Source of the DNA: Lophium mytilinum
Lineage: Eukaryota
Reading direction: 5' to 3'
Length of the DNA: 64,000 bases
NCBI GenBank assembly: GCA_010093605.1
Contig: MU004194.1
Span: 1,464,323-1,528,322 of the forward strand
In this document: positions 13,346-43,264 of the stretch, piece by piece
How the letters are laid out: the number at the start of each line of letters is the position of its first letter
How positions within the stretch are numbered: the stretch's first letter is position 1
Notes under the pieces: generated by a model
What the model saw: only the letters and a program-made list of their open reading frames with translations
The model's database searches: none
What the model was told of the DNA's origin: nothing
Translations under genes and position numbers: made by a program

Positions 13346-13859
13346 GTCCAGGCTGCTCCCGTGGCGCTCCTATCGCTGGGTCATCGGCTGGGAGCGGCGC
13401 GCGCAAGACGTGCGGATGTCGTAGAATATGTGGCGGTCAATCACCAAGAGTATGCGCTTGGGCGGGTTGCTGTGTCGGTAGTGATGTGTCGATTTGCGGT
13501 CGTGGCTGGGATGATGAAGAGGAGGAGTTGCATCACGGTCTGCGAAACAGCGGCCAAGAGCGGCCGGAGATTCGTCGGGCCGGGCAAGCCCAGAAATGAA
13601 GTGAAGCCTCGCGTTGCGCGCTCAACAAAGCACTCCAATTCTCCACCGTCCGAGGTGATGTTGTAGCCATCAGACCGATCGCTAACCCCCCAAGCTGGTC
13701 GGAGGATGGATTAGGGCTTGATGAATGTAACCCTGTTGCGCATTCCTGCCTCGACACTTCCACAAAGACTACGACAACCACGCGTACTCACCGTCTTCGA
13801 CCTCCCACTCGATCGTAGGATCTATTTAACCTTTTTGGACGCTATCCAAGCCAACAACT

Positions 13860-16843
13860 ATGGCAACCAAGCGGAAAGCAGCTGCCATGGGCAGTGATGA
13901 AGAGCCTGTAGACCCGTCAGACGAGCTCCTGTTCTTCTGTCTTGGTGGAGGCAATGAAGTTGGACGCTCATCGCATATAATACAGTACAAAGGAAAGACA
14001 GTGATGGTAGGCTCAAACCACGGTTGTTTGCTTAGAATGGATGCTGATAGAGGATAGCTTGATGCTGGCATGCATCCGGCCTTTGAGGGTCTAGCCGCAC
14101 TGCCTTTCTACGATGAGTTTGATCTAAGCACCGTAGACGTGCTACTTATCAGCCAGTATGTATTCTCGCTTCTCCAGAATCGGCGACCAAGGATGGGAGA
14201 GCATTTGTCACTGTTGAACGGGCATGGAACATCATCGCCGGGACGTGTGCGTTTGCACCGTTGCAGCCCTGCAAACTGTCTTCCGCGGCAACACTTCTTG
14301 TATATGAGAATCAATCGAAATATATCTTGTATACTACATGTCCTAGCTCGTCCTGGTGAAGTGCGCTCCACCAGGAACCCTCTCGCAATCGTGTACATAG
14401 CAATGCTCTCCCATCCGCGTCAGTTTACTCCATCCCTCATGCAACGGTACTAACTGCATACCAATAGTTTCCATATCGATCATGCCGCCTCATTGCCATA
14501 CGTCCTCTCCAAGACCAACTTCAAAGGCCGTGTCTTCATGACCCATCCTACGAAAGCCATCTACAAATGGCTGGTGCAAGACAGCGTCCGTGTTGGGAAC
14601 ATCTCCTCTTCTGCCGAACAGAAGGTGCAACTATACACCGAAGCGGACCATCTATCAACCTTCCCGATGATCGAGGCCATCGATTACTACACCACCCACA
14701 CCATCTCATCAATACGAATAACTCCCTACCCTGCTGGACACGTACTGGGCGCAGCCATGTTTCTCATCGAGATTGCTGGCCTCAAGATCCTCTTCACAGG
14801 CGACTACTCAAGGGAGGAAGACAGGCACTTGATCTCTGCTGAAATCCCCAAAAACATCAAAATTGATGTCCTCATCACTGAAAGCACTTACGGTATTTCT
14901 CGACACACTCCTCGAATGGAGCGTGAAGCCCAACTCATGAAGAGCATAACCAGCGTGCTGAATCGTGGTGGCCGTGCCCTGCTACCAGTTTTTGCCTTAG
15001 GCAGAGCGCAGGAGCTATTGCTGATTCTGGATGAGTATTGGGGAAAGCATCCAGAGTATCAGAAGATCCCAATATACTACGCCTCAAATCTAGCGCGGAA
15101 GTGTATGGTGGTCTATCAAACATACATCAGTGCCATGAATGACAATATCAAGAAGCTGTTCCGGGAACGCCTCGCGCAAGCTGAAGCTGCTGGAGACGTA
15201 GGCAACGCGGGCCCGTGGGATTTCCGCTTCGTAAGGAGTTTGAAAAGCTTGGAGCGGTTTGACGATGTAGGTGGATGCGTTATGCTGGCTAGTCCTGGGA
15301 TGATGCAGAACGGCGTGTCGCGGGAGCTGTTAGAACGATGGGCACCAGATCAAAGAAATGGTGTCATCATCACTGGTTATTCAGTTGAAGGGACAATGGC
15401 AAAGGAGATTATGCATGAACCGGAGCAGATAACAGCCATCATGACAAGAGGTAGTCAGACCGCCCGAAGGCCAGGCGGCCCTCGAGAAGGAGAGAAGGTT
15501 TTGATCCCACGACGATGTAGCGTGCAAGAATACAGTTTTGCAGCTCATGTTGACGGACCAGAGAATATGGACTTTATCGGCGAAGTGAACGCTCGTGTTG
15601 TCGTAAGTTTTTCGCCCTTTGAATCAACTACGATGTGTATATTAACGAAACATGCAGATCCTCGTTCATGGCGAAAAGCACAACATGATGCGACTGAAAT
15701 CCAAACTCCTCTCCCTCAACTCCGACAAAACCGTCGCCGCAAAAATCTACTCCCCCGCCAACTGCGAAGAGCTCCGCATCCCCTTCAAAGCAGATAAAAT
15801 CGCCAAAGTCGTCGGCAAGCTCGCGCAGATTCCACCACCACTCCCCTTCCGAGGAAAAGACGACCCAGAAGGTCGCCAAGAAGACTCAGACAACTCGAAA
15901 TTCATTACCGGCGTCCTCGTCCAGAACGACTTCAAGATGTCTCTCATGGCCCCCGAAGACCTCCGCGAGTATGCCGGCCTGACCACCACGACCATTCTGT
16001 GCCGACAGCACCTTAACCTCAGCGCCGCGGGCATCGACCTCATCCGATGGGCGCTTGAAGGCACGTTTGGCGCGATCGAAGAGATCACAATCGAAGACGA
16101 GGCCGTCAATGGGAAAGTACAGGCCAACGGCAACGCCCACAAACACGAAGACGCTGACGAGGAAGTCTCGCGCTCCACAACTGCGCTAAAGGTCATGGAC
16201 TGCGTGACGATCTACTGTCGACCCGGCGGCTCGGTGGAGGTGGAGTGGGAGGGCAATATGATCAACGACGGCATCGCGGATGCGGTGCTTGCGGTCTTGT
16301 TCACCGTGGAGAGTAGTCCTGCAGCTGTGAAGCGTAAGTGCCCCGAGCCTTGCCATTGAACGGCTGTGAGAATCTATATACTGACTGCTTGAAACAGAAT
16401 CATCTCGCTCCCACAGCCACAGCCACTCCCATACCCCTCTGTCCAGCGCCCTCCCCACGCGTCTCAAACCCTCTCACAACCCGCACGCCTCCTCTGACCC
16501 TTCTACCCGCTTCGCCCGCCTCTGCATGTTCCTCGAAGCGCAGTTTGGGCCCAATGTCCACCCTATCACCCACCCGCGCCTTGGCACCTCGGACCCCTCC
16601 TCCACCCCCGAGTCCGCCGACGCAGATCCAGAGAAGTACACCAAAGCCGAAATGACGGAGCTGAAACGCCTGCACAACATCGGCATCCCCGTGCCTGGCG
16701 TGGAGATACGGTTCGATAACCACGTCGCGCGAGTTTGGCTGGAGGATCTGAGTGTAGAGTGCAAGGTGCAGGCGCTCAGGGATCGAGTCAGGGCGGTGGT
16801 GGAGAGGGCTGTTGAGACGGTGAGTGGGCTGTGGGTTGGATGA
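13860..16843 (+). CDS. YSH1: mRNA 3'-end endoribonuclease Ysh1/CPSF73 (metallo-beta-lactamase/beta-CASP)
   Basis: Exons 13860-14006, 14058-14155, 14468-15602, 15658-16333, 16398-16843. Motifs [25 protein letters not shown] (spliced), [45 protein letters not shown] and NDGIADAV. Confidence 0.97.
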
Positions 16844-18122
16844 GTCAATCAATGGCAAGGCGAAGGAAAGGATGTGGAAGGGAAAGAGGCATTTGGAGTA
16901 GTGAGCTACGGCGTGGCGTTTAGCATCTGGCCTGCCTATCAGGATTAGGGATATCAGGGATAGTCTGGGTGGCATATCATAGATCCTAGGACAGCTCATG
17001 CCAATGGAAATATTGACATTTTGAGACTAAGGCTCGCATTCTATATTGCACGATGTCATGAGAGACACTGGTATAACGCATGTCCATGCTTCATGCGCAA
17101 TTCTTCTAATCCTCTACTAATTATCCGTGATGTTTATAGAGCTAAACGCGCTTAGTCTCCCACCTCCCTACCTACCTACCTACCTCTCACGTGTTCCCAT
17201 ATCCCCCGGCATGGCCCTCACGTGCCAATAACATCTGCCAGTTATAAAACCTCCTCTCCCGAGGCCCCGAATCTAGAAATCAGAGGTTTGATGGCCGTCT
17301 GAAACAGGCGGGGTATCAACTAAAGAAGCTGGATCACAAGACGAACATGGGAGGAGGGAGATACTTCTAGCGAAGTGATGACGCGTATCATCTCTCCAAA
17401 TAGCAGCCCATAAAACTAGGTCCACATATCTACTGTGCCCAATGTCAGGCTCCGCTATCGTGCCATCGCCCTGCTCGTCTTTAGCAATTCCCAGAGGTGA
17501 TGATTGAATACGCAAATAAGCAGCCCGCACATGACGAAGGACGAAGTTGCGTTTGAACGCTCCATTGCTCGTCTTGCTCGGATTCTTTGCTCTGCTGTCG
17601 TCGTCGAGGCTTCTGGTCTCTTGGAACTTCGTGGAAGGGGTATTTAAGGCATGGAAACTGAATCTGGTAGGGTCACGAGCCTGGGATCGAGTTGCTCGTG
17701 ACGGGTTTCAGGTAGACGCATATCATGGTTGATTAAGGAATGCTCTTAGGTTTCTTGAGTTGCGCGTATGTACTACCTACGAATTGGACCATATAGAAGC
17801 TTTTTTGGGTGTCCGTGGTGTGGCACATGGAGCCAGCTTTAACCCCCTCTTTCTCATTTAGTTGCAGGTAGTCACAGATTTGACCGCGTGAAATCATTTT
17901 TGGTAGCCGTGAAGTGACACGCATTGCTCTGGGTAGAACGAGACGACAGCAGCATACATATCCTAGATGTAGTTGCTGCAGATACTTGCTAATCAAACAC
18001 ACAGAATCATTTTGCCAGACGCAGAGTAGACGCGGAGGGGATGCCAACCTAAGATGTTATTATTCCATCAACCTACATATCTACACGAAACCAAGGATGT
18101 TGTATTTTTCGTAACCCACCGT

Positions 18123-43205: not shown

Positions 43206-43264
43206 GCTGTATATAGGATTGAAATCTTACATAATTCTACTTCATACTTCATTCAAAGTTTGGA

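Follow-up and report, generated by a model that had tools for sequence, protein, structure and literature searches.

Factors of mRNA 3'-end processing reportedly limit their own levels from within their introns: CstF-77/su(f) is said, in work attributed to Pan (2006) and Luo (2013), to carry an autoregulatory intronic poly(A) site, and the same is said of PCF11. The present analysis deals with the gene of the nuclease itself, YSH1/CPSF73, in a stretch of 64,000 nucleotides (nt) from Lophium mytilinum (GenBank assembly GCA_010093605.1, contig MU004194.1; hereafter the window, whose own numbering is used), where a 312-nt intron interrupts the catalytic motif. As in both systems, the host gene encodes a core 3'-end processing factor and a truncated YSH1 product would lack the catalytic motif; the YSH1 case differs in that the nuclease itself would be concerned, in fungi, and in that its intronic cleavage is a proposal. 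The central catalytic step of mRNA 3'-end formation belongs to Ysh1/CPSF73, whose level must be kept under tight control; the long intron is a candidate for RNA-level control of Ysh1 in filamentous fungi, many plant pathogens and species of industrial use among them. A first-pass annotation of the window had suggested an autoregulatory switch based on intronic polyadenylation, with a stem setting the balance between splicing and cleavage, and had known of no such description for fungal Ysh1; a literature search likewise found no published description of this YSH1 intron or of such fungal autoregulation.

Comparable systems have also been described in yeasts. In the YSH1/SYC1 genes of Saccharomycotina (Hurtig et al. 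2020, PMC7491326), which belong to the same gene family, a conserved intron varies the product. There, however, splicing starts from a donor site in the 5' untranslated region (UTR) and uses alternative 3' splice sites, giving a nuclease-less isoform, while the intron described here lies inside the HxHxDH motif and no second isoform is seen. In RPL7B and other yeast ribosomal-protein genes (bioRxiv 10.1101/2025.03.14.643126; PMC13232506), splicing is enhanced by a zipper stem and the intron senses the product of its own gene, although there the protein blocks splicing via an alternative RNA structure, whereas the YSH1 core has no conserved structure. Finally, the zipper stems of S. cerevisiae (RPS17B/RP51B; Rangan et al. 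2025, PMC12350175; Rogic et al. 2008, PMC2536676), which are common in its long introns, are long-range helices reaching from after the 5' splice site to before the branch point, thus shortening the effective distance. The window's stem, predicted from sequence, has this layout, but its host is a filamentous ascomycete, and it is restricted to its lineage, whereas the intron that contains it is ancient.

A long spliceosomal intron at one fixed codon

The YSH1/CPSF73 gene was read directly from the sequence on the + strand, with its ATG at 13860 and four introns. Its exon 3 (P0001, 378 amino acids, aa) matches S. cerevisiae Ysh1 (6i1d_A) with an E-value of 1.3e-123 and also human CPSF73, and contains the Pfam domains Lactamase_B and Beta-Casp. 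Among public proteins, one named Lophium mytilinum agrees with it at 100% identity and one named Mytilinidion resinicola at 99%. The long intron splits the first His codon (CA|T) of the sequence ISHFHIDH. Both this placement and the contrast in length, 312 nt against 51–64 nt for the other introns of the gene, had been noticed in the first-pass annotation and agree with direct reading, the placement also with RNA-derived joints. Introns of filamentous ascomycetes are typically about 50–60 nt long. Near the 3' end of the long intron stands the heptamer TACTAAC (14448–14454), which we take to be the branch-point consensus.

The RNA data consisted of assembled contigs of two coded runs, X1 and X2, and such contigs cannot show RNA ends. 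Spliced joints were found in X1 contigs at 14005/14057 (cut +1), 14155/14468 (depth 325.7) and 15602/15658, so X1 is RNA-derived; X2, which comes from a relative with about 2–4 differences per 100 exon bases, has the same three joints, that of the long intron at a depth of 9.18. The segment 14156–14467 is a genuine GT..AG spliceosomal intron of YSH1/CPSF73, normally removed by splicing. One unspliced X1 contig (14126–14497, depth 20.8) runs across the whole long intron and, because its 5' end lies in exon 2, represents precursor or retained-intron RNA. Neither internal joints within the long intron nor a second isoform were found among the X1 contigs. The uncovered parts of X2 and the absence of unspliced contigs for two short introns carry no evidential weight.

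A separate observation concerns X2 record 7. Aligned to 14468–14572, it represents a second YSH1 messenger from a more distant organism, with 16 differences in 105 nt; its upstream part resembles another species' exon 2, which indicates that the X2 sample is mixed.

For comparison, 26 metagenome loci were found by scanning contigs with P0001 and were grouped by their best named protein as Gloniaceae (L009, L010), Helotiales (L001–L003, L011–L014), Lecanoromycetes-like (L004–L008, L015) and Cladosporium-like (L016–L024). Both exon 2 and exon 3 are present in 22 of them: L001 and L015 (at least 284 nt) end inside the long intron, L026 holds the C-terminus only, and L025 (44% identical), in which an interruption of about 85 nt without a canonical GT lies roughly one codon upstream, was left out. 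In all 22 loci a GT..AG intron of 289–408 nt interrupts the identical CA|T or CA|C codon, while the neighbouring introns measure about 32–58 nt. Intron 1 is 49–58 nt long where present and is absent in the Cladosporium-like group, in which exons 1 and 2 are fused. In one member of that group (L017, 2433–5286) the tblastn comparison gave two pieces only, aa 1–83 and aa 80–839; since the rest of the gene gives one uninterrupted match, the long intron is the sole YSH1 intron remaining there. The fixed codon and the length of the long YSH1 intron across loci from several fungal classes are newly described here. From these sequence comparisons, the best explanation is that the long intron is ancient and fixed in position in YSH1 of filamentous ascomycetes.

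In the Lecanoromycetes-like loci (L004–L008 and L015), exon 3 is interrupted after about 45 codons by a further short intron (3141–3183 in L005), which has no counterpart in the other lineages.

Conserved core and lineage-specific stem

The middle of the long intron contains two sequence blocks (Table 1), block 1 being a UGUAYA word followed by an A-rich stretch. Blocks 1 and 2 (UGUACAUAGC) are common to the window, both Gloniaceae loci and the Helotiales loci L002, L003/L011 and L012–L014, and the part TGTACATAG of block 2 is identical in the window, L009, L002, L003 and L012. For block 1, the best ungapped 22-mers share 19 of 22 letters with L002, L012 and L009, a value reached by none of 100 shuffles in each case. 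Eight of the 26 loci, like the window, contain a single copy of the 17-mer TGTAYAYGAGAAWCAAT, invariably inside the long intron. Smith-Waterman alignment of the window's intron gave a score of 32 with L002 and of 59, over about 60 nt, with L009, and 0/200 shuffles scored as high in either comparison. The spacing has also been kept, with 87–102 nt from block 1 to block 2 and 65–80 nt from block 2 to the 3' splice site; intron 1, taken for comparison, shares at most 5–6 letters. On the strength of these alignments, the core is conserved at least between Mytilinidiales/Gloniaceae and Helotiales, that is, across two classes. The significance of block 1 applies to the Helotiales- and Gloniaceae-type loci.

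Words resembling elements just 3' of stops in the window had been pointed out in this region, and TGTATAT (14299), AATATAT (14319), TGTATA (14328) and TGTACA (14392) were all found in place, as were TGTATAT-type words after the stops at 43208 and 51596. TGTAYA occurs three times in the 196-nt loop between the stem arms against 0.16 expected (0/1000 shuffles); plain TGTA, three times against 1.19 expected, is not significant (108/1000 shuffles). In the 300 nt that follow long open reading frames, the density of TGTATA is about 2.5 to 3 times that in the rest of the window (8 occurrences, a small count, with open reading frames as a crude proxy). Aligned at the UGUA of block 1, nine sequences from five groups of loci, five of these sequences sharing block ancestry, have an A-rich stretch from +2 to +22 and then a U-rich one from +25 to +40. 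Poly(A) sites of Neurospora are described as A-rich at -30 to -10, with U-rich sequence about the site itself (PMC5869017); UGUA serves as an upstream poly(A) element, and the Hrp1 site consists of UA repeats (PMC12667328). By analogy, the layout of the core, UGUAYA followed by A-rich and then U-rich sequence, may be called poly(A)-signal-like, its order being that of the Neurospora sites.

Around the core, a 15-bp inverted repeat had been claimed, and it stands well above chance: the two 15-nt arms are 100% complementary and 196 nt apart (a loop of about 200 nt had been predicted), with a duplex energy of -27.4 kcal/mol, and in 300 dinucleotide shuffles of the intron the longest perfect inverted repeat averaged 7.3 and reached at most 12, none attaining 15. 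The stem belongs to the minimum-energy fold, whose z-score was -3.58 with 100 shuffles and -4.15 with 60. The smaller hairpin within the loop was also found as predicted. According to the definition of Rangan et al. (2025; PMC12350175), a zipper stem has at least 6 bp and a total linker of 42–85 nt. The window's stem, with 15 perfect bp and linkers of 35 nt and, up to TACTAAC, 31 nt (14417 to 14447), 66 nt in total, has the geometry published for yeast zipper stems, as far as its predicted pairing goes.

In Gloniaceae- and Helotiales-type relatives, the core with UGUAYA recurs, while the 15-bp stem has not been kept as sequence; the first-pass annotation had named a lack of conservation of the stem or the UA-rich core as a refuting outcome, and of these the core is conserved. 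Folding z-scores, to be compared with -4.15 in the window, were -0.34 to -2.75 in six Cladosporium-like introns, -0.57 in L009, -0.43 in L002, -0.97 in L003, -0.58 in L012, +1.09 in L005 and +0.27 in L016. Perfect inverted repeats above chance were found in the window, L017, L018 and L022 only, L023 being borderline. The strong fold is confined to the window's lineage and, more weakly, to the Cladosporium-like loci, and RNAalifold run on the core of eight sequences returned no consensus pairs. Eight Cladosporium-like introns share a long-range stem of their own, of unrelated sequence, with 90.8% of cells paired as against 31–47% when slid. It contains G-U pairs, which work only in the sense RNA, and three pairs with compensatory changes; the covariation score was reached by 15/500 shuffles, and since the eight sequences are close kin the covariation gives modest support. 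In L017 the linker of this stem measures about 113 nt, outside the zipper range.

Several further resemblances were considered and set aside. A core homologous to that of the window was suggested by eye in the Lecanoromycetes-like (AUCAAUACAA) and Cladosporium-like (ACAUAGCCA, UGUAUCAAA) introns, and neither gapped nor ungapped tests placed it above shuffles. A nested intron or poison exon, with block 2 as internal 3' splice site and block 1 as 5' splice site, was rejected in view of the lack of a conserved upstream branch point and of a G at +5 (both by eye) and of internal joints in X1. In addition, it was noticed post hoc that the 3' UTR of YSH1 contains UCAAU-type words resembling each species' own block 1, namely GAGUCAAUCAAUGG, GAGUCAAUACAGAGG and UUAAUCAAUCAAG (window 16844–16860; L012 about 5360; L003 about 5327), with a looser word of this type, UCAAUAAG, in L002.

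Table 1. Positions of the YSH1 exons, introns and intronic elements in the window
Feature	Position	Strand	Basis or remark
YSH1 exon 1 (49 codons)	13860..14006	+	Read directly; X1 and X2 contigs joined at 14005/14057 (cut +1)
Intron 1, 51 nt, ordinary short intron	14007..14057	+	Read directly; contig joint
Exon 2, ending in CA of the first His codon of HFHIDH	14058..14155	+	Read directly
Long intron, 312 nt, phase 2, GTATGT..TAG	14156..14467	+	Joint 14155/14468; same codon in 22/22 loci
Left arm of the 15-bp stem	14191..14205	+	Inverted-repeat search
Block 1, UCUUGUAUAUGAGAAUCAAUCGAAA: UGUAYA, then A-rich stretch	14296..14320	+	Ungapped 22-mer comparison, 17-mer search
Second copy of TCTTGTATA	14325..14333	+	Predicted to pair with block 1 in a local hairpin (14300–14309 / 14325–14334), in the window's fold only
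8-bp hairpin TCCTGGTG..CACCAGGA, -13.4 kcal/mol	14351..14376	+	Fold
Block 2, TGTACATAGC	14392..14401	+	Common to window and relatives
Right arm of the 15-bp stem	14402..14416	+	Inverted-repeat search
Presumed branch-point consensus TACTAAC, branch A 14453, 31 nt beyond the stem	14448..14454	+	By eye
Exon 3, metallo-beta-lactamase and beta-CASP core	14468..15602	+	Pfam; match to S. cerevisiae Ysh1
Intron 3, 55 nt	15603..15657	+	Joint 15602/15658 in contigs
Intron 4, 64 nt	16334..16397	+	Public protein model P0002

Proposed role and competing explanations

Our tentative proposal, held with appreciable though less than even confidence, is that the long intron is a conserved regulatory intron whose core acts as a cis-regulatory element tuning productive YSH1 mRNA. 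The mid-intron core would be largely unstructured, with block 1 (UGUAYA, A-rich, then U-rich) followed some 90 nt further on by block 2 (UGUACAUAG), and a second fate would compete with splicing, either premature 3'-end cleavage and termination at the poly(A)-signal-like site or retention and decay. In 22 of 22 relatives, a frame read on past exon 2 ends at a stop after a single codon, so unspliced or truncated YSH1 RNA would be unproductive and devoid of the catalytic motif. Transcription would reach the core about 150 nt before the right stem arm and the 3' splice site. Were the core acted on first, by the 3'-end machinery or by some other factor, the transcript would be lost; otherwise the stem would close the core into a loop, bringing the splice sites within about 66 nt, and splicing would win. 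In the window's lineage, the stem would thus be a zipper that favours splicing as soon as transcription has passed the end of the intron.

Cleavage by the cleavage and polyadenylation factor (CPF) complex itself as the competing fate is plausible, though the odds are against it, and no likelier is the fuller version, in which Ysh1/CPSF73 would gauge its own activity across much of Pezizomycotina. It would do so by cleaving the YSH1 pre-mRNA at a conserved site resembling a poly(A) site, in the long intron just before the catalytic motif, lineage-specific zipper stems setting the race between splicing and cleavage. Such self-gauging, if real, would be some hundreds of millions of years old, given its spread across much of the subphylum, and intronic cleavage, if it occurs, would extend the feedback logic of CstF-77 and PCF11 to the nuclease itself. 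Of the switch proposed in the first-pass annotation, the part that is supported is a functional, probably regulatory intron, in view of its presence in 22/22 loci and the conservation of its core, while cleavage by Ysh1/CPF and a balance set by the stem are steps that we infer.

Several results weigh against this proposal. The splice signals of the long intron, GTATGT and TACTAAC, are strong, while many regulated introns differ in this respect. The unspliced contig amounts to about 6% of the spliced joint, a ratio of per-contig mean depths which allows no comparison with the short introns, whose unspliced forms may drop out in assembly. No loose ends were seen among the X1 contigs, which, being assembled, are unable to show RNA ends, and a lysine run, as a trace of intronic polyadenylation, was found in 0 of 26 fetched short proteins (out of 944 matches), again a source poorly able to show ends. 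The A-rich and U-rich order comes from only nine, partly related sequences. Moreover, alignment of the core with the Lecanoromycetes-like introns gave scores of 17 to 21, a level that 24 to 152 of 200 shuffles also attained, and for the Cladosporium-like introns the corresponding figure was 21 to 137 of 200; because the core is not demonstrably shared with these two groups, the length of their introns is left unexplained. Block 1 was also sought in Aspergillus-named and other models that read through the intron, where the back-translation was similar, and was rejected with tblastn E-values of 0.45–0.53. Nor can the stem be a general requirement, since strong folding is absent in the Gloniaceae-, Helotiales- and Lecanoromycetes-like introns (z -0.97 to +1.09).

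The strongest competing explanation, itself unlikely in our judgement, is that the intron merely aids splicing, its length being historical, its stem a zipper and its blocks splicing enhancers or sites for general splicing factors, with no feedback on YSH1. The place of the stem agrees with all four positional criteria for a zipper, splicing is efficient (325.7 against 20.8) and its signals are strong, and in S. cerevisiae long introns commonly carry zipper stems (PMC12350175, PMC2536676). Nevertheless, a splicing aid leaves unexplained why an intron of 289–408 nt stands at one codon in 22/22 loci, with neighbours that are short or lost, and why it is the sole remaining intron in Cladosporium-like loci; most lineages have kept the long intron without a fold above shuffles, and a 25-nt block conserved across two classes would be unusual for a mere enhancer. 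The length would also be accounted for by a stable non-coding RNA, an atypical small nucleolar RNA (snoRNA) or other small RNA, released after splicing. Long fungal introns are often hosts of snoRNAs, an intronic H/ACA snoRNA in a vacuolar sorting protein gene being conserved across Pezizomycotina (PMC8216456), and the blocks hold ANANNA-like and ACA words; in the window an ACA precedes the right stem arm by 6 nt. However, a scan of 13800–14800 found no Rfam match up to an E-value of 10 inside the window's long intron on the sense strand, and none was found in the introns of nine loci, so the known snoRNA that the first-pass annotation had named as a refuting outcome did not turn up; the best match of the 1001-nt region was an antisense C/D match with an E-value of 0.23 overlapping the 5' end of the intron. 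SNORD74-like matches in L002 (3726–3788) and L003 (4395–4457), with E-values of 0.17 and 2.3, lie in a YSH1 coding exon and were dismissed as spurious. Furthermore, the core of eight sequences has no RNAalifold consensus pairs and z is near zero outside two lineages, CCAUGA takes the place of ACA in L004–L008, and no conserved C or D boxes were seen by eye. In the accessible parts of the literature, the main text of a screen of N. crassa and A. fumigatus introns (17 structures) names YSH1, CPSF or polyadenylation 0 times and its Table 1 assigns structures 01–15 to other genes (PMC8216456), and a term search of a fungal snoRNAome paper found no mention of YSH1. With no Rfam match, no hairpin pair conserved and H/ACA words not kept in all lineages, a canonical snoRNA is unlikely, and an intron-hosted RNA of whatever kind is improbable.

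Less probable still is an element acting at the DNA level, either an intronic enhancer or an internal promoter for an N-terminally truncated, catalytically dead Ysh1 echoing the Ysh1/Syc1 pair. Conservation of sequence without structure suits a protein bound to DNA as well as to RNA, many public gene models begin after the long intron, and budding yeasts obtain their nuclease-less Syc1 from YSH1 alternative splicing or from a duplicate gene (PMC7491326). But Syc1, according to the same source, corresponds to the C-terminal domain, far downstream; the unspliced X1 contig begins in exon 2 (14126) and so represents pre-mRNA instead of an internal start, gene callers that fail at the long intron account for the truncated models, and G-U pairs in the stems are valid in the sense RNA only. 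As for a miniature inverted-repeat transposable element or foldback transposon inserted into a short intron, the perfect 15-bp inverted repeats around some 200 nt speak for it. It is nevertheless nearly excluded, since it is the looped-out segment that other orders and another class share, 22/22 relatives have the long intron, a search of the 64-kb window allowing up to 2 mismatches found no further copy of the arm, and no direct target-site duplication was seen beside the arms by eye. Moreover, the left arm is translated identically (RMGEHL) in the model named Mytilinidion resinicola.

Public gene models

The public YSH1 models (P0002, P0003, P0227–P0346; window 13860–16843) are broken at the long intron. 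In the 870-aa model named Mytilinidion resinicola, 38 intron residues have been translated, the identical left stem arm among them, and the 785-aa model named Lophium mytilinum lacks exon 1. Furthermore, 944 short public proteins match exons 1–2, most of the best 120 being 83–85 aa long. Among the 26 that were fetched, 10 end in Q and a stop directly after exon 2, 8 of these with intron 1 read through or with extra N-terminal residues, and 13 others extend further into the long intron. The records of the short proteins are named Leotiomycetes, Sordariomycetes, Eurotiomycetes and Dothideomycetes, and include the names Glarea, Lachnellula, Sordaria, Apiospora, Aspergillus, Phyllosticta and Friedmanniomyces. 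Such widespread mis-modelling of YSH1 is consistent with the presence of a long intron in the whole subphylum. It matters to annotation pipelines and to those who use the protein sequences, since they meet 83-aa orphan proteins and YSH1 models that are truncated at the N-terminus or read into the intron.

In the window only, the frame from exon 2 stays open for 99 codons through the intron, over 14156–14453, until a TAA inside the branch-point motif; this appears to be a side effect of GTATMT as against GTAAGT, yet it is unusual (about 1% by chance, by our own estimate).

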